The notes below the pieces were generated by a model, which did not search any database, was not told where the DNA came from, and saw nothing but the letters and a program-made list of their open reading frames with translations. From UHGV virus genome UHGV-1352852: a DNA stretch of 44,165 nt; one strand, written 5' to 3'. The position numbers and the translations under genes are program-made. Below are positions 3,853 to 35,336 of the stretch, in pieces. Position 1 is the stretch's first letter. Every line of letters starts with the position of its first letter. This DNA is from a virus.

Positions 3853-4269
3853 TTACTTTTCCGAGAGTTTCTCACGGCTATCGGTGTGATGCTTAACTAC
3901 GGCCTCTGCCAACCCACTGTACTGGTCGAACAGGTTAGCAAGCGCCTCTTTGCTGAATGGTTCGTCGAATGACCAACCGGTGACGATTTCCACGGCAAGC
4001 TGCTTGTTCAGGTCCATCACCCGCCAGCCCTTCTCATCATTATAGCGCGCCCAGTTATTCAGCGCCTCGCACTCTTTATCTAATGGCGCAAGTTCTTCCG
4101 TAAGGCGTCGAATTGCCGTTGTGTAGGCACGGCCCGCACGAACACCAGCGTCACAATCGGGGCCGATGACCTGCAACCATTCACCGGAATCTTTACCACT
4201 GGGCAGAAGGATAGGCATTTTAGTACCGGCGGCGTGGCGGTCCGCAAAATAAAAATCAGAAAGTTTCAT
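3853..4269 (-). CDS. tail assembly chaperone (G-like)
   Basis: 138-aa ORF between the major tail and tape measure genes; a GGAAAAG run lies at its 3' end inside the -1 frame overlap. Confidence 0.5.
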   Translation of the reverse strand: MKLSDFYFADRHAAGTKMPILLPSGKDSGEWLQVIGPDCDAGVRAGRAYTTAIRRLTEELAPLDKECEALNNWARYNDEKGWRVMDLNKQLAVEIVTGWSFDEPFSKEALANLFDQYSGLAEAVVKHHTDSREKLSEK

Positions 4270-13785: not shown

Positions 13786-14247
13786 TCATTCTGGCTTAGT
13801 GACCTTCGCCGCTTTACTGAAGGCCTCTACGCCATCGGCATCGGTAACCTTGACGAAGTATTCACCGACTGCATTAACCGTCAGAGACAAAGCCTCTTCA
13901 GGTGCGTTTACCACTTCCTTACCGTCTTTGTACCAGGTCAGCACATATGGCGCTTTACCAGCCTTAACTTCGACAGTGAGAGTCGCGCTGCCGTCTGTCA
14001 GTTCGGTATCCTGCGGTTGCGCAGAGAAATACACGTCTCCAGCGTCTGCCAGATACGGAATCTCGTAAAGCATACCTGCGGTCGGTAGCGCAATACCAGT
14101 TTTATCTGCAAACGGCATATCGTCTACAGGTGTACCGAGTACACTTTCATCTTCAATAAATACCACGTTCTCACCGGAGCCAGACACACGGGCGTACTGG
14201 ACTACGCGACGCGACGGTACGTCAGTTACTTTGAAAAAGCCCATCAT
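13786..14247 (-). CDS. Ig-like domain structural protein
   Basis: Segment TLTVEVKAGKAPYVLTWYKDGKEV...GEYFVKVTDADG is Ig-like; downstream of the head-morphogenesis gene. Confidence 0.45.
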   Translation of the reverse strand: MMGFFKVTDVPSRRVVQYARVSGSGENVVFIEDESVLGTPVDDMPFADKTGIALPTAGMLYEIPYLADAGDVYFSAQPQDTELTDGSATLTVEVKAGKAPYVLTWYKDGKEVVNAPEEALSLTVNAVGEYFVKVTDADGVEAFSKAAKVTKPE

Positions 14248-16184
14248 TATTCCCCTTTCAGATAATCAGCAACACGTTTATCGAGTTCCGCCATCTGCTT
14301 AAGCGTGAGCGGACGCCCAAAACCATCTACAGATATTACGCGAAACTCCTCTGGTGATATACCGCTGTTACGGAAAATCTTACCGCGAACAGGGCCGAGC
14401 GCCTGGTCCTGAAACCATGCGGGCTGTTGTTTAAGGAACTCGTAGTAGGTTGTGTCCGCGCTTACCTGAGTACCGCCGTCCGCCCCGCGTGCCGCGCGTT
14501 TTGCGCCTTTATCAAGGAAGTCGAACTCCGAGCTAATCACCGGGGCCGTGGTACTTCTGCAATTCGGATGCGCTGGCGGCATCGGCCCTTTTCCAATTTC
14601 CCACGTCATTCCGTCTCTGGCCCTGCAATTCTTGACTATCGCACTACCTGCTGTATAATATCCTTGACTACTAGAGAGGGTATAAACATGGCACGTTCTA
14701 AACTCGACGCTTATGCGGATGATATTTGTTCTTTGTACCGAGATGGCACTCCCGCCAGCATCATAGCCAAGAATTACGGCGTCACTACCACCACGGTAAC
14801 AACATTTCTCAAGAAGCTCGGACTCATGCATGATCGACCCCGTGGTTGGGTTTCTAACGACACCATTTTGAATCAAAAAAGGGCTATAGAATTGTTCGAG
14901 TCCGGCGTCCCGCCTATTGAGTGCATAAGAAGGACCCAAGTAAGCAAAACAGTTTTCTATTCTATGGTCAAAACACTTGGCCTCGCTAAGCGCGGGCACA
15001 CTCACAGGACATTCACCCCGGAGGAGAAAATCGCCAGAGCTATCGTCCGACAGCAAAGCGGCGCTATGAATAAGACTGAAACCCTCGCTTTTGAATTGTT
15101 TAATTCCGCTGGCGTGGACGTAGTTCCGCAGTTTGCAATCGGCCCGTACAATGTCGATTTTGCCATTGAGTCCCACTCCATCGCCATAGAAATCTGTTGC
15201 CGCGGGACTCGTGCTTACCATTTTCCTGATGGGGAAATCAGCGAGCGTATTAAAAATATAATCCGCTCTGGCTGGCATGTTTATGTTCTTCACTGTTTCG
15301 AGCACAGTCACTTTGTCAACAGTGGTATACAAGACATGCTTAGTTGGATCGAGTTCATCAAGCGGAGTCCATCCGTATTGCGTGAGTACAGGGTGTTTCG
15401 GGGTGCCACTGAACTTCTCGCCGTTGGAAAGTTCGATGGTAAAGATTTTTCCTGAATAGAGTCCGCGCATTACCGCGTCCATCCCCGCGATGGGCGCTAA
15501 TTCTGTTTCAGCCGTGAAACACGTTGTACTGGTACGGCTGTCCAGCGTTGACACCCACTCGTATTTCTCGATGATGTCGTCGTTCTGGCGGTACGTCTCG
15601 TTACGGGCTTCGTTGGATACGTGAGCCAGCGCCGTACGTATTACGGTAGCGGCGTTACGCTCAGAGATGTCGGCCAGTCCGCCAGCGCCTACAACATTCT
15701 TAACAATCTGCCGTGTGGTTTGACCCTGAACAAAGCCCATCTTAACGCCAGTTACCAGGCGCGATACTTCTGTTTCACCCCAGCCACCCATCAGCTTAGT
15801 GAAATCTACTGGCTTGTCGCTTAACGACAGAGGCTGAAACTCGGCAGCGGCCCACACCTGTTCGGCAGTAGGCGTAACAAATTCAGCGTTGACGTTGGCC
15901 GTGAGTGTCTTTACATTCCACTCAGCCTCATACGCCGCCAGGTCCTTAAGGTCTTCTGTCAGCTTTGTTTGCCAGTCACCCGTAAGTCCTGTCAGTGCTT
16001 CTTCTAGGTCGCGTAACAATTTATTCAGTCGCGCAGTGCTTCGCCCGTCGTCACCGAATAACAGCACCTGCCGTTTGATTTCATCCCGCATCTCCTGAAT
16101 GAACGGTGTGAGGTCTTTCACTTCGCCGGATGCGGTGCGTTGCAGCCATATCTGGTGGCTGATTAGGGATGTAAGTAAGCTCAT
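14247..16184 (-). CDS. head morphogenesis protein (Mu F / SPP1 gp7-like), intein-containing
   Basis: Track ORF 14247..16241; ATG at 16184 (MSLLTSL) with GGAGGG RBS. C-terminal PPAHPNCRS motif typical of the Mu F family; central ~300-aa insertion with intein motifs. Confidence 0.7.
   Translation of the reverse strand: MSLLTSLISHQIWLQRTASGEVKDLTPFIQEMRDEIKRQVLLFGDDGRSTARLNKLLRDLEEALTGLTGDWQTKLTEDLKDLAAYEAEWNVKTLTANVNAEFVTPTAEQVWAAAEFQPLSLSDKPVDFTKLMGGWGETEVSRLVTGVKMGFVQGQTTRQIVKNVVGAGGLADISERNAATVIRTALAHVSNEARNETYRQNDDIIEKYEWVSTLDSRTSTTCFTAETELAPIAGMDAVMRGLYSGKIFTIELSNGEKFSGTPKHPVLTQYGWTPLDELDPTKHVLYTTVDKVTVLETVKNINMPARADYIFNTLADFPIRKMVSTSPAATDFYGDGVGLNGKIDIVRADCKLRNYVHASGIKQFKSEGFSLIHSAALLSDDSSGDFLLRGECPVSVPALSEAKCFDHRIENCFAYLGPSYALNRRDAGLEQFYSPFLIQNGVVRNPTTGSIMHESELLEKCCYRGGSDAVILGYDAGGSAISVQRTNIIRISVEFRTCHVYTLSSSQGYYTAGSAIVKNCRARDGMTWEIGKGPMPPAHPNCRSTTAPVISSEFDFLDKGAKRAARGADGGTQVSADTTYYEFLKQQPAWFQDQALGPVRGKIFRNSGISPEEFRVISVDGFGRPLTLKQMAELDKRVADYLKGE
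14632..14659 (+). promoter_or_regulatory. sigma70 promoter TTGACT-N16-TATAAT for the intein-embedded endonuclease gene
   Basis: Near-consensus -35 and -10 hexamers read directly; GAGAGGG RBS follows ~8 nt before the ATG at 14688. Confidence 0.55.
14688..15455 (+). CDS. homing endonuclease-like protein: two HTH motifs + Vsr-like (DUF559) PD-(D/E)XK nuclease domain
   Basis: Internal ATG of track ORF 14427..15455. HTH segments SIIAKNYGVTTTTVTTFLKKLGL and IECIRRTQVSKTVFYSMVKTLGL; C-terminal core YNVDFAIESHSIAIEI...GWHVYVL; encoded antisense within the intein. Confidence 0.6.
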   Translation: MARSKLDAYADDICSLYRDGTPASIIAKNYGVTTTTVTTFLKKLGLMHDRPRGWVSNDTILNQKRAIELFESGVPPIECIRRTQVSKTVFYSMVKTLGLAKRGHTHRTFTPEEKIARAIVRQQSGAMNKTETLAFELFNSAGVDVVPQFAIGPYNVDFAIESHSIAIEICCRGTRAYHFPDGEISERIKNIIRSGWHVYVLHCFEHSHFVNSGIQDMLSWIEFIKRSPSVLREYRVFRGATELLAVGKFDGKDFS

Positions 16185-16228
16185 ATGCCCTCCTGTAGTA
16201 TCGCCAGTGTAACGCATAAAAATAATAT

Positions 16229-16257
16229 TTGCAGACACCAATATAATAGGGTACTAT
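16229..16257 (+). promoter_or_regulatory. sigma70-like promoter TTGCAG-N17-TACTAT with embedded palindrome
   Basis: Third near-identical copy; leader shares TATCGAAACGAGA with the copy at 26613. Confidence 0.5.
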
Positions 16258-21844: not shown

Positions 21845-22330
21845 TCATTTAACAGCCCTCCCAATAGCCTCCGCCTCCTGCCACGGTTTACCGTTGAACA
21901 ATGCCAGCCGCCCGGCTGTACGGCGACGCAGGCCAAGTAGTGGTTTGCCGTTCTGGTTGATGAACAGTGCCAGCTTAGCCCGCAGTGTTGCAGTATCACC
22001 AGAACGCAGTGCCTTGCCTGTGCCCGTAGTAGACGCAATCACGCCAGCGCCAGCGTTATACACCAGGTCACACACTGCGTCGAACTGCGCCTGTGTCAGT
22101 GAATGGTGCGCCGCTGCATCAACCGCAGCTACGGCCTTAGCCATATCACGGTTCAGTAACAGGAGGCCTTGCCCCGGGGTGATGGTCTTACCTGGTGTTA
22201 CGTCTGGCCCGTAGTGACCGTAGCCTATAGTCAGGTACTTCTCATTTGGGGTAGCGCGATACGCGGTACCGCGGAATCCCTCGAACGCGGCGGTAAAATG
22301 CAATCCATTATCTGAAATGTTTCGAGACAC
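21845..22330 (-). CDS. endolysin, T4 lysozyme-like (GH24 muramidase)
   Basis: Motif FEGFRGTAYRATPNEKYLTIGYGHYG carries the GH24 catalytic Glu/Asp/Thr pattern; GTG start at ~22330 preceded by GGAGGA (track ORF runs to 22381). Confidence 0.8.
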   Translation of the reverse strand: MSRNISDNGLHFTAAFEGFRGTAYRATPNEKYLTIGYGHYGPDVTPGKTITPGQGLLLLNRDMAKAVAAVDAAAHHSLTQAQFDAVCDLVYNAGAGVIASTTGTGKALRSGDTATLRAKLALFINQNGKPLLGLRRRTAGRLALFNGKPWQEAEAIGRAVK

Positions 22331-22580
22331 GCTTATGTCCTCCGTATGACAGCCACGCCTGACGAATCTGACGCAGCGCAACTAATGTGATTAACGTCTC
22401 AGGCAGCGTTGGTGACATGCTGCTCTGTAACAGGTGTATACATCCGGCAGCACAGACGATGGCAGTCAGGATATAGAGCACCCGACCGAATAACCCGTCG
22501 TCCACGCTGGGGTGATATACATTAAACAGCGATGTGCCTCCTATTACCAGCATACCGCCGAACCAGAATAGCTCATTCAT
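22308..22580 (-). CDS. holin-like protein (two TM helices)
   Basis: Internal ATG (MNELFWFGGMLVIGG...) of track ORF 22308..22742 with GAGGAGG RBS; two hydrophobic helices; directly upstream of the endolysin. Confidence 0.5.
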   Translation of the reverse strand: MNELFWFGGMLVIGGTSLFNVYHPSVDDGLFGRVLYILTAIVCAAGCIHLLQSSMSPTLPETLITLVALRQIRQAWLSYGGHKRVSKHFR

Positions 22581-22881
22581 CTGTGCCTCCTCGACGTGCA
22601 ATGTATTCTCCGGCGACGATACCAGAGAGACGGGAATAGATAGGCATCCAGAGAATAGCGATAATGAAGCCCAGGCCAGCGATTTCACGGTCGCCAGTGA
22701 TACCGAACCATTGAGCTGCGAGAGGTGCGCCAAATACGGCACAAGTGAAGCCAGTAGCGATAAAGCAGAAGCCGTCGATAGGGCCAGAAATAACGGACTT
22801 ATGTTGTCGTAGTCCGATTACCCCACCGGCTAGTGCGGCAGCCAGAAGCCAGCCTGTCACTGTTTCAGTAAATTTATCCAA
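22573..22881 (-). CDS. holin (multi-TM)
   Basis: 102-aa protein with three hydrophobic segments; TTG start preceded by GGAGGA; first gene of the lysis cassette. Confidence 0.55.
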   Translation of the reverse strand: MDKFTETVTGWLLAAALAGGVIGLRQHKSVISGPIDGFCFIATGFTCAVFGAPLAAQWFGITGDREIAGLGFIIAILWMPIYSRLSGIVAGEYIARRGGTDE

Positions 22882-22940: not shown

Positions 22941-23381
22941 TTATCCTAATAGTTGTTTGGTAATAATCTTGCCGCCGGTGTTAGTGTCGAACTTCGACGC
23001 AACGGCTACACCACCGTGTGCCGAGTATCCACATTCCATAGCTGCCAGTGCATAAGGAGAACCAGACCCCACGGCTGAAAAACTATCGGCAACCGGAATA
23101 ACTGAACTAAGTGCACAATCCCACGATTTATAAAACGCGACTTTGTACACCTTTTCTGTGTCTTTCACGAACACCAGAGCTTCGAAATCGAAGTCATAGC
23201 GCTTTGGCACTAAAATTCCTCGGTCACCAACGAGAATATCCCCTACCCCCGCATCACCAGCCACCCCGATAACAGCAAAATCGTTCTCGTATATCTTCGT
23301 GTCTGTGTTGTAACAGTTACTCCCGCACACAACACGCGTGTCACATGCCATTGTCTTTCCGTCAAACGCGATAGTCGTCAT
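22941..23381 (-). CDS. HslV / proteasome beta-subunit-like Ntn-hydrolase
   Basis: Starts MTTIAF (Thr after the initiator Met, as in HslV MTTIV), GVAGDAG and SAVGSGSPYALAAM motifs matching HslV GFAGG and IGSGGPYAQAAA; GGAGA RBS. Confidence 0.6.
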   Translation of the reverse strand: MTTIAFDGKTMACDTRVVCGSNCYNTDTKIYENDFAVIGVAGDAGVGDILVGDRGILVPKRYDFDFEALVFVKDTEKVYKVAFYKSWDCALSSVIPVADSFSAVGSGSPYALAAMECGYSAHGGVAVASKFDTNTGGKIITKQLLG

Positions 23382-23671
23382 TTATGTCTCCAGATGTATT
23401 GTCGTCTCTGCGGTTTCGTTGGAATATCCTCGTATCCCAGCGATTTCCAGTAATTAAATAGCCGGTTAGCGATTGCTGCGCGTTCCTTTGTCTTGAACTC
23501 ACCCAGATTCACGGCCTTCCCGTTCTGGAACCCACAGGCGCGGACAGCTTTGCGTCTGGCCTGAATCTCAGGGTACAGCGCGTTACCTCGGCGCTTGTAT
23601 ATCCTGGTGTTCGCTCTCGGTGACAGCGGCGCAAGGCCGCTTCTTTTCAGGATGTCAGTTGCGAGGCTCAT
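23378..23671 (-). CDS. small basic protein, possible AP2-like DNA-binding domain
   Basis: Internal ATG of track ORF 23378..23758 with GGAGG RBS; segment KAVNLGEFKTKERAAIANRLF resembles AP2-type motifs (weak). Confidence 0.35.
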   Translation of the reverse strand: MSLATDILKRSGLAPLSPRANTRIYKRRGNALYPEIQARRKAVRACGFQNGKAVNLGEFKTKERAAIANRLFNYWKSLGYEDIPTKPQRRQYIWRHK

Positions 23672-26641: not shown

Positions 26642-27001
26642 GAGAATAGTTACGTTGCCGTTGTGATTCTTCGGGGAAGGTTGTGCCTTTATTCTTATTA
26701 CTTGGTAACTAAAGGGCAGGCCTTAAGGCCTGCCCAATAATCGTTACATTTTTACGGTTGCGAATCTACGGCATAGGAAGAAACAGTAGATATTTCAGCT
26801 GGTTACTTCTTTAAATGAGATTTAGATACACTTATCCTTAAACCCCAAGGCAAGCATCTCAGCTGTCTGGGAGGGGTTGACGAATCCCTCGGGGAGGGTT
26901 CGTCAACTCCGTAATACATACAAGTCCCAAAACCATTATACAAACATGAGTCAAGAACTTTCAATAACTTTTTTGTAAAGATTAAATATTGCAGGGATTG
27001 G

Positions 27002-33164: not shown

Positions 33165-35336
33165 ATGAGTTACCTGTTCTTAGACTTTGAAACATTCTCC
33201 GAAGCCGATTTAAAGAAATTCGGCTCCTATGCTTACGCCGAACACCCGACTACCGAAGTGCTTATCTGTACCTATGCTTTTGATGACGAGCCTGTACAGG
33301 TATGGGATTGCACAGACGGCAGCGACATGCCGGGGGATTTGCACCGCGCACTGCGCCGTCTGGTTAAGCCAAACAGTCGCATTAAGATGGTGTGGCACAA
33401 TGGCTCAATGTTCGACAGGCTCGTCATGAAGCATTGCTGGGGCTTTGATATTCCGGTAAGCAACACTATCGATACGATGATTTGGGCGTTTCGTCACGCG
33501 CTGCCGGGTTCTCTTGATGCGCTGTGTGAAGTGCTTGGCGTGTCCGCAGACAACGCGAAAGACAAACGAGGCAAAGCGCTTATTCAGCGTTTTTCTAAAC
33601 CGACACCGAAGAACTACAAAATCCGCCGCTACACTGCTGAAACGCACCCGGATGAGTGGGCGCTGTTCATCAAGTACGCCGTGAGCGACATCACTGCGAT
33701 GCGTGAAGTCTTCCATAAGCTGCCGCGTTGGGGTAACTCCGAGTTCGAAGACCGTGTACTGGAACTTGACCAGTTAATCAACGACCGCGGATTTAAGGTT
33801 GACGTCGCACTGGCGGAAGCCGCGATTGAAGCCGTAGAGAAGCACAAGGCACAGTTACAGGAAGAAGCTCAACGTAAATATGGCGGCTCGCTTACCGGTA
33901 AAGACTTCCTTCCGATTCTGCGTGAACTTTCGCCCGCGCACCGCATACACAATGCACAGAAGTCGACGCTTAACGACCTGTTGGCAGATGATGATTTACC
34001 GGACGACGCCCGGATGATTATCGAAATGCGCCTCGGGGCCGCGTCAACAGCGTCAACGAAATATACCCCGCTGCTGCTGGGCCGCTCTTCGGACGACCGC
34101 CGACGCGGTTGCATACAGTATGGTGGAGCTAAGCGTACATTACGATTTGCCGGTAAAGGCTTCCAGCCGCAGAACCTGGCGCGCGGGTACTATCATGATG
34201 ATGAACTGGATAAAGGCATTTCTGCGTTACTTAAGGGCCGTGCGCACCGCCGATTTGACGTAGCCAAGCTAACGGCATCGACGGTTCGCAGTTGCATCAT
34301 ACCGGAAGCAGGGCATAAGTTTGTCGTCGCCGATTACTCTAACGTTGAGGGTCGCGGGCTTGCGTGGCTGGCGGGTGAAGACGATTTAATCGAAGTATTT
34401 GTAAACGGGGTTGATGTGTATAAGAAACTCGCATCAACGGTGTTCAATGTTGCATATGAAGCCGTAACAAAGGACCAAAGACAAATAGCCAAAGCAATGG
34501 TTCTGGGACTCGGCTACGCGGGGGGCGTCGGTGCTTTCGTCACGTTTGCTAAAAACTTAGGTCTTGATTTGAATGACATGACTAACACTTTAGACGGTAC
34601 ATTCCCGGACCATATTTGGGCCGCTACCGCACGCGGATACGAATGGGCGCGTATTCAGGAAGCCAAGCGACCACCACGTCCTGGTGAAAAAGATGACCGA
34701 CCCTCATATATCCTTGATAAGAAAGTTTGGCGCACCTGTGACGCTTTAAAGCGCATGTACCGGGAAGCTAATCCTGCAATAGTCCAATTCTGGCGCGATA
34801 TTGAAGACGCGGCTATGGCGGCTATCCGCAACCCAGGTAAAGAGTTCACCGCAGGGCCGCGTGGCGTTAAGTTTTCGCGCAACGTGGAGACAGATAACAA
34901 CGGCAACAAAGTCGCCGGTTGGTGGCTGCGCATGACGTTGCCGTCTGGTCGCGTTATGTCTTATCCAGGCGTCGGGTTGAGCGTGTCGAAAGAAACAGAC
35001 GAAGATGGAAAAGTGTCTACTAACGTGCGCATTAAGTACCAGGGCGAAAATCAGCTAACCCGTCAGTGGGGGTTCCAGTACACCTACTCGGGTAAACTGG
35101 TGGAAAACTGCACTCAGGCATTGTGCCGTGATTTGCTGGCTAATGCCCTGCTGAACGTAGAAGCAAACGGCTACCCGATTGTACTTCACGTACACGATGA
35201 GATTATCTGCGAGACACCAGATTCACCGGAATACAATGTAGCAGAGCTTGAGCGGTTGATGTGCGAATTGCCGGAATGGGCGGAGGGGTTCCCTCTTGTA
35301 GCAGAAGGTAGCGAAATGTACAGATACGCCAAGTAG
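33165..35336 (+). CDS. DNA polymerase I (family A) with 3'-5' exonuclease domain
   Basis: Exo motif LFLDFETFS; polymerase motif A DYSNVEGRGLAWLAGE, motif B QRQIAKAMVLGLGYAGG, motif C VLHVHDEIICE. Confidence 0.85.
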   Translation: MSYLFLDFETFSEADLKKFGSYAYAEHPTTEVLICTYAFDDEPVQVWDCTDGSDMPGDLHRALRRLVKPNSRIKMVWHNGSMFDRLVMKHCWGFDIPVSNTIDTMIWAFRHALPGSLDALCEVLGVSADNAKDKRGKALIQRFSKPTPKNYKIRRYTAETHPDEWALFIKYAVSDITAMREVFHKLPRWGNSEFEDRVLELDQLINDRGFKVDVALAEAAIEAVEKHKAQLQEEAQRKYGGSLTGKDFLPILRELSPAHRIHNAQKSTLNDLLADDDLPDDARMIIEMRLGAASTASTKYTPLLLGRSSDDRRRGCIQYGGAKRTLRFAGKGFQPQNLARGYYHDDELDKGISALLKGRAHRRFDVAKLTASTVRSCIIPEAGHKFVVADYSNVEGRGLAWLAGEDDLIEVFVNGVDVYKKLASTVFNVAYEAVTKDQRQIAKAMVLGLGYAGGVGAFVTFAKNLGLDLNDMTNTLDGTFPDHIWAATARGYEWARIQEAKRPPRPGEKDDRPSYILDKKVWRTCDALKRMYREANPAIVQFWRDIEDAAMAAIRNPGKEFTAGPRGVKFSRNVETDNNGNKVAGWWLRMTLPSGRVMSYPGVGLSVSKETDEDGKVSTNVRIKYQGENQLTRQWGFQYTYSGKLVENCTQALCRDLLANALLNVEANGYPIVLHVHDEIICETPDSPEYNVAELERLMCELPEWAEGFPLVAEGSEMYRYAK

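Follow-up and report, generated by a model that had tools for sequence, protein, structure and literature searches.

Does a phage gene lying next to a lysis cassette encode a true HslV that could work with the HslU of its host, or an enzyme of another kind? The gene in question is found in the virus genome UHGV-1352852, of which a stretch of 44,165 nt was analysed in full (the window). A sequence-only reading had taken the product for an HslV or proteasome-like Ntn-hydrolase, had proposed that it might pair with host HslU, and had regarded such a peptidase as unusual in a phage of this size. The window belongs to a Kagunavirus-like E. coli siphophage (Guernseyvirinae); about 79% of its first 25 kb can be aligned to known isolates, at about 91% identity. 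By PHROG annotation, its ten largest ORFs encode the usual structural and replication proteins. A tRNA scan of the whole 44 kb found no tRNA genes, and no Rfam family reached its gathering score in the same 44 kb. PADLOC defence models gave no match.

The Peptidase Gene and Its Setting

The open reading frame lies on the minus strand, which the sequence-only reading had not named, and contains all that was claimed for it: a product of 146 aa, the N-terminus MTTIAF, and the segments GVAGDAG (residues 39-45) and GSGSPYALAAM (residues 105-115). A Shine-Dalgarno GGAG is located 6 nt 5' of the ATG. The ORF is a genuine gene, and more than a chance ORF, since it matches PHROG 1040 in a profile search (E=1.7e-34), has 294 close homologues (those listed are 82-97% identical), retrieves 1,479 clusters in an exhaustive homologue search (50% identity, E<=1e-3), and shows a dN/dS of 0.13 against the peptidase of phage Bas73, with 47 synonymous and 31 non-synonymous differences. 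The gene is under purifying selection, and the full catalytic site is kept. The Pfam Proteasome model (PF00227) gives 17.8 bits, below its gathering cut-off of 22.4; the same model is matched by 61 of 106 family members at E<=0.01.

Table 1. Positions in the window of the peptidase gene, its catalytic codons and its immediate neighbours.
Feature	Position	Strand	Remarks
PPH-type proteasome-like peptidase gene	22941..23381	-	ATG start, 146 aa plus stop
Ribosome-binding region GGAGACATAA	23382..23391	-	Immediately 5' of the peptidase ATG; sequence read
Thr2 codon (ACG)	23376..23378	-	Predicted N-terminal nucleophile after Met1 removal; aligns with HslV Thr1
Asp14 codon	23340..23342	-	Equivalent of proteasome/HslV Asp17 (hhalign)
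Lys29 codon	23295..23297	-	Equivalent of Lys33; aligned to HslV Lys33
Gly42 codon in GVAGDAG	23256..23258	-	Oxyanion-hole Gly (Gly47 in proteasome, Gly48 in HslV); aligned with HslV GFAGG
Residues 43-68, remnant of H1/H2 layer	23178..23255	-	Short helix 46-51, then lower-confidence loop
Gly105-Ser106-Gly107	23061..23069	-	Proteasome Gly128-Ser129-Gly130; HslV Gly123-Ser124-Gly125
Asp132-Thr-Asn-Thr135 (FDTNTGG)	22977..22988	-	Proteasome Asp166/Ser169 region
Upstream 97-aa gene	23378..23671	-	phrog_9632, E=1.3e-54; no assigned function
Holin	22573..22881	-	Immediately downstream of peptidase; phrog_2359, E=4.2e-29
Second holin	22308..22583	-	phrog_2508, E=4.7e-33
Endolysin	21845..22330	-	Pfam Phage_lysozyme, E=3.8e-27; PHROG endolysin families

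In an ATGA, the start codon of the peptidase shares bases with the stop codon of the 97-aa gene upstream, an overlap that suggests translational coupling. Bas73 and a Jerseyvirus-like locus (L010) likewise have a homologue of the 97-aa gene ahead of the peptidase. The two genes are probably a conserved, translationally coupled pair of the Guernseyvirinae. The 97-aa protein itself has no Pfam match, and an impression of likeness to AP2 is unsupported.

On the other side, a holin, a second holin and an endolysin come next on the same strand, so that the gene does stand directly upstream of the lysis cassette, as had been proposed. The order peptidase, holin, holin, endolysin is common to other Kagunavirus phages and to Jerseyvirus, where the peptidase is about 62% identical. 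When eight neighbouring small ORFs were compared with Pfam, the endolysin alone gave a match, and no spanin gene was identified downstream of the lysis genes in the window. The second holin overlaps the start of the endolysin by about 23 nt, while Bas73 has an annotated ORF of 105 nt between the two; a small indel thus distinguishes the lysis cassettes of these close relatives.

Catalytic Site

Conservation was counted in an alignment of 106 diverse homologues. The predicted nucleophile, Thr2, is a threonine in 104 of these and a serine in the other two. Asp14 is kept as Asp in 103 and replaced by Glu in three, Lys29 is invariant (106/106), and the oxyanion-hole position, Gly42, is Gly in 105. 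In the Gly-Ser-Gly segment both glycines are found in all 106 homologues and Ser106 in 99. Asp132 is kept in 102, and position 135 is occupied by Thr, Ser or Cys in every one of the 106; in comparison with 20S beta subunits, this FDxxTGG segment falls on their RDxxSGG (Asp166/Ser169) region.

The comparison with HslV leads to the same residues. The two motifs that had been likened to HslV GFAGG and GSGGPYAQAAA are indeed aligned with them in the profile comparison (hhalign 97.5%), and equivalents of the N-terminal Thr, Lys33, Asp17 and Ser124 of HslV are all present, as judged by hhalign columns and conservation. The sequence-only reading had staked its case on an Ntn-type fold and on the conservation of Thr2 and the Gly-Ser-Gly region; the latter two are conserved in distant homologues, and the fold is confirmed, as described in the next section.

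Methionine aminopeptidase strips Met before small residues such as Thr. The crystallised chain of E. coli HslV starts at a Thr that is residue 2 of an MTT... ORF. In the phage family, 140 of 146 full-length unbiased representatives begin with Met/Val-Thr or Met-Ser, and most of the exceptions look like mis-called starts. Given that Thr or Ser follows directly after the first residue in these 140, the PPH-type family has no propeptide. The conservation of Thr2 and its alignment with HslV Thr1 support the proposal that Thr would be exposed as the N-terminal nucleophile once Met has been removed.

Fold and the Reduced Helical Layer

The predicted structure, a monomer AF2 model, confirms a proteasome-type Ntn beta-sandwich fold, and BPH is its top structural match. 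The model departs from HslV in the first helix pair. According to DSSP, the sole helix between strands 36-42 and 66-72 is formed by residues 46-51, and pLDDT is 67 at residues 51-60. The H1/H2 region is about 19 residues shorter than that of HslV by hhalign, and the spacing from the oxyanion Gly to the Gly-Ser-Gly segment is 63 residues in the peptidase, which is also the family median, versus 75 in HslV. The model ends with strand 139-143 and has no S12/H5 and no C-terminal extension. Small size is typical of the family, with a median length of 147 aa and 126 of 146 representatives at or below 160 aa.

In the 20S particle and in HslV, the H1/H2 helices make up the outer face, while H3/H4 provide the ring-to-ring contacts (PMC8665760). 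H3/H4 is the most conserved non-catalytic segment of the phage family, with A111, A114, M115, G118, A124 (consensus) and A128 at 90% or more. This pattern is compatible with a conserved interface and suggests that the protein may self-assemble.

Relation to HslV and to Host HslU

The sequence-only reading stands as far as a proteasome- or HslV-like Ntn hydrolase is concerned, while an assignment to HslV proper does not hold. BPH and 20S beta subunits are relatives at least as near to the peptidase as HslV (ClpQ; PDB 1e94, 1g3i, 1m4y) is. The models for HslV equivalogs, TIGR03692 and NF003964, give 13.1 and 12.5 bits versus cut-offs of 157.75 and 137. E. coli HslV is 30 residues longer than the phage peptidase and has two long H1/H2 helices, in contrast to the six-residue H1 stub and absent H2 of the phage protein. 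The failure of the equivalog models, the altered HslU pocket and the missing helices together place the peptidase outside the HslV family.

The C-termini of HslU enter pockets at the subunit boundaries of HslV, with Phe54, Phe57, Ala79, Lys80 and Gln114 as lining residues (PMC6429459). The corresponding positions in the phage peptidase, by hhalign, are Asp48, Val51, two positions in the non-helical loop, and Pro96. With the H1/H2 deletion and these changed residues, docking to host HslU would be left without a structural basis. The proposed pairing with HslU thus finds no support in alignment and model, in which the helices and residues of the C-tail pocket appear deleted or changed.

Gene content agrees with this picture. 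HslV pairs with HslU, whereas the phage gene has no adjacent hslU. No unfoldase is found by PHROG annotation among the large ORFs of the window or in annotated relatives, and no HslU/ClpX-type unfoldase lies beside 52 diverse homologues. A Walker-A scan (G-x4-G-K-[ST]) of window ORFs of at least 100 aa gave zero matches, with a pattern so strict that even the helicase and the terminase were missed.

A Known Phage Family

The study of Fuchs, Alva & Lupas (Bioinformatics 2021) added 22 new homologues of the proteasome, for which they report no AAA+ partner and no informative gene context (PMC8665760). Judged by the defining features of the family, the peptidase is a member of the phage family PPH (PHROG 1040; representative WP_042125023.1, KEGG OC.1434257), which is already known. 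PPH proteins are compact, at about 140 residues, and lack both S12/H5 and a C-terminal extension; the present protein has 146. H2 of the first helix pair is missing, as seen by both DSSP and hhalign. Equivalents of Thr1, Asp17, Lys33 and the oxyanion Gly47 are present and there is no propeptide. The family is found in Caudovirales phages and prophages and belongs to group I, which radiates from BPH; here the carrier is a Kagunavirus-like siphophage and BPH is the top structural match.

Nothing substantive separates the peptidase from PPH as described by Fuchs et al. in 2021, with which it shares BPH as nearest neighbour, the lack of an AAA+ partner and an uninformative gene context. The PPH paper reports only H2 as missing, whereas the Kagunavirus member also has a very short H1 (6 residues in the model). 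Differences from the other relatives are larger. BPH (PDB 5ovs, 5ovu) is larger, at about 185-200 aa against the 146 aa of the phage peptidase, and possesses both pairs of helices as well as a long, acidic pore loop. BPH is described as forming tetradecameric double rings (PMC5777263); the phage peptidase was modelled as a monomer. Compared with 20S beta subunits (beta5/beta5i, archaeal beta), the phage peptidase is about 55 residues shorter and is devoid of propeptide, H2, H5 and an alpha-subunit partner.

For a phage of this size, such a peptidase is not the rarity that the sequence-only reading had supposed. The gene is present in 337 phage records (315 at >=80% coverage), mostly of Jerseyvirus and Kagunavirus, and belongs to the standard gene set of that group; BFVD contains at least 37 viral structure clusters with the same fold. 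Public phage records label the gene 'peptidase HslV family', 'protease' or 'ATP-dependent protease'. With the gene annotated in public records and its family in the literature since 2021, this locus brings nothing of a new kind. Among known proteasome-like proteins PPH is the smallest, and it is present in hundreds of coliphages and Salmonella phages that are well studied and used in therapy collections. Literature searches for a functional study of PPH, of phage HslV-like proteins or of Guernseyvirinae proteases found none. The anti-Dnd protein JSS1_004, from a paper in which HslV is mentioned, was considered and rejected: it is a kinase/shutoff protein resembling T7 gp0.7, and the paper names HslV only as a host gene that is repressed.

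Gene Neighbourhood in Distant Phages

Whether PPH has a preferred genomic setting was examined in 80 IMG/VR loci, dereplicated to 52 at 80% identity, with two flanking genes counted per side. There is no recurrent partner across these 52 loci: any one neighbour family, by BLAST clustering, occurs in six at most, and Pfam families mostly occur once. The flanking Pfam families include replication and recombination functions (UvsY, VRR-NUC, RecA-dependent nuclease, Prim-Pol, ribonucleotide reductase) as well as packaging and head functions (terminase, P22-type portal and coat, DnaT_2). Lysis-related families flank the gene in 5 of the 52 loci (lysozyme in two, M15 peptidases in two, a holin in one), a count in which small genes such as holins are under-represented because flank ORFs were called crudely (longest ORFs, greedy). 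Guernseyvirinae-like loci account for 3 of the 52. A Klebsiella Jedunavirus carries the homologue in an island of three genes with tail genes on either side. Since the flanks are this mixed, the lysis-gene neighbourhood is a trait of the Guernseyvirinae and not of PPH as a whole, and the peptidase looks like a stand-alone module. What the present analysis adds for the family is the loss of the HslU docking surface, the lack of a recurring partner gene in diverse phages, and the confinement of the lysis neighbourhood to one lineage.

Some individual settings are worth recording. A DnaT_2 (PF20557) gene lies directly upstream of the PPH homologue in four loci (L028, L051, L067 and L071), ending at about 4001-4004, or at 1084 in L071; its stop overlaps the PPH start in L028, L067 and L071 and is immediately adjacent to it in L051. 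P22-type coat and portal genes are found no more than two genes from PPH in several of the 52 loci. In some lineages, PPH may thus stand beside the head module and not beside lysis genes.

Counter-defence genes are also encountered. On one distant viral contig, an Acb2/Tad1-like (Acb2/Tad1-hairpin) gene (L059:3645-3992, plus strand) lies directly upstream of the PPH homologue, which is at 4001. On another, a Tad2-like gene (L068:3079-3573, plus strand) lies two genes upstream of the homologue, again at 4001. Genes of the Acb3 and Lar families turn up in further loci of the census, at most two genes away from PPH. PPH may be associated with counter-defence islands, or these raw counts may simply reflect a position in variable accessory regions.

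Proposed Mechanism and Alternative Readings

The product is likely to be a PPH-type N-terminal-threonine peptidase that is active as a stand-alone enzyme, without HslU. Host methionine aminopeptidase would take off Met1, and the free alpha-amine of Thr2 would then serve as the base and its side-chain hydroxyl as the nucleophile. Lys29 and Asp14 would assist, Gly42 would form the oxyanion hole, and Ser106, Asp132 and Thr135 would support the site, an arrangement known from 20S beta subunits and HslV. Because the family has no propeptide, no autoprocessing step would be needed. Given that the apical H1/H2 layer, which binds HslU in HslV, is cut to a stub, the enzyme is most likely HslU-independent. 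Proteasome subunits on their own, apart from the assembled complex, show no activity (PMC8665760), so the activity of the phage peptidase would hinge on a putative assembly, probably one formed by self-association through the strongly conserved H3/H4 helices. Its substrates may be peptides and unfolded or loosely folded proteins in the infected cell. The substrates of host HslV include sigma32, SulA, RcsA and LpxC (PMC7730581), which makes these proteins candidate targets for the phage peptidase.

It is very unlikely that the protein acts as a phage HslV that docks onto host HslU hexamers, replaces or competes with host HslV and thereby redirects ATP-dependent proteolysis. The replaced residues of the C-tail pocket, the H1 stub and the absent H2 speak against this, as do equivalog scores of 12.5-13.1 bits versus cut-offs of 137-158. 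The affinity to BPH and 20S beta subunits, which is at least as near, points the same way, and BPH has no known unfoldase. The lack of an AAA+ partner for the new homologues, as reported by Fuchs et al., is a further argument. A catalytically irrelevant decoy or poison subunit, which would co-assemble with host HslV and inactivate it, is extremely improbable. The HslV core fold is common to the peptidase, and phages do inhibit host proteases, for example T4 PinA acting on Lon. Against a decoy stands the complete catalytic set, nearly invariant over a very divergent family, which is to be expected of an enzyme. Ntn hydrolases with the same catalytic set can also be ligases, as is the case for connectase. 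That PPH is a non-degradative Ntn enzyme, either a connectase-like sequence-specific ligase or transpeptidase or an amidase with a small molecule or one particular protein as its target, is unlikely.

Two further readings assign the protease a particular role in infection. In the Guernseyvirinae, it could be a processing protease that cleaves a component of the lysis pathway or a related host factor, and so affects lysis timing or envelope breakdown. The gene order kept from Kagunavirus to Jerseyvirus argues for this, as does the precedent that overproduction of host HslV lowers LpxC, the controller of LPS synthesis (PMC7730581). The LpxC experiments, however, retained chromosomal hslU (PMC7730581), gene adjacency by itself is weak evidence, and the link is lineage-specific, given the few loci with lysis flanks in the census and the tail-gene setting in Jedunavirus; a role in lysis is decidedly unlikely. 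It is doubtful, too, that PPH is an unfoldase-independent protease for host takeover or counter-defence, a minimal proteasome that would degrade particular proteins of the host, for example immune effectors or stress regulators. What hints there are come from gene context alone, namely the counter-defence genes found near PPH in distant phages. If this counter-defence reading were true, PPH would have become fixed at the head of the lysis cassette in the Guernseyvirinae and would reside in accessory gene regions elsewhere. Kagunavirus and Jerseyvirus growing on E. coli K-12 or Salmonella offer a convenient genetic system for the function of PPH, whether as a stand-alone peptidase or otherwise.

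Other Features of the Window

Two large genes of the window seem to contain additional segments. A 664-aa Mu F-like head-morphogenesis protein (14247-16241, minus strand) has a split match to PHROG 241 and a weak Intein_splicing match at residues 254-317 (E 4.5e-4, under the gathering score). Its homologue in phage fEg-Eco06 is annotated as 'minor head protein with inserted intein'. An intein inside this protein is therefore possible. Of its PHROG profile, the family-A DNA polymerase ORF (33165-35336, plus strand; 723 aa) spans no more than about 563 positions, and residues 441-537 give a match of their own to an 'endonuclease' PHROG (phrog_93); with Pfam, no endonuclease domain is seen. The extra segment appears to be an insertion in the polymerase.

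The peptidase gene is part of a long leftward run of small ORFs, which starts close to a promoter-like site (about 26964). The interval 26714-26964, on the minus strand, holds the best sigma70-like promoter match of the region, TTGAAA-18-TATAAT (11/12), and about 200 nt downstream of it, on the same strand, a strong terminator-like hairpin with a 9-bp stem of which eight pairs are GC. This arrangement could serve as an attenuator at the start of the leftward peptidase operon, or give rise to a short leader transcript there.
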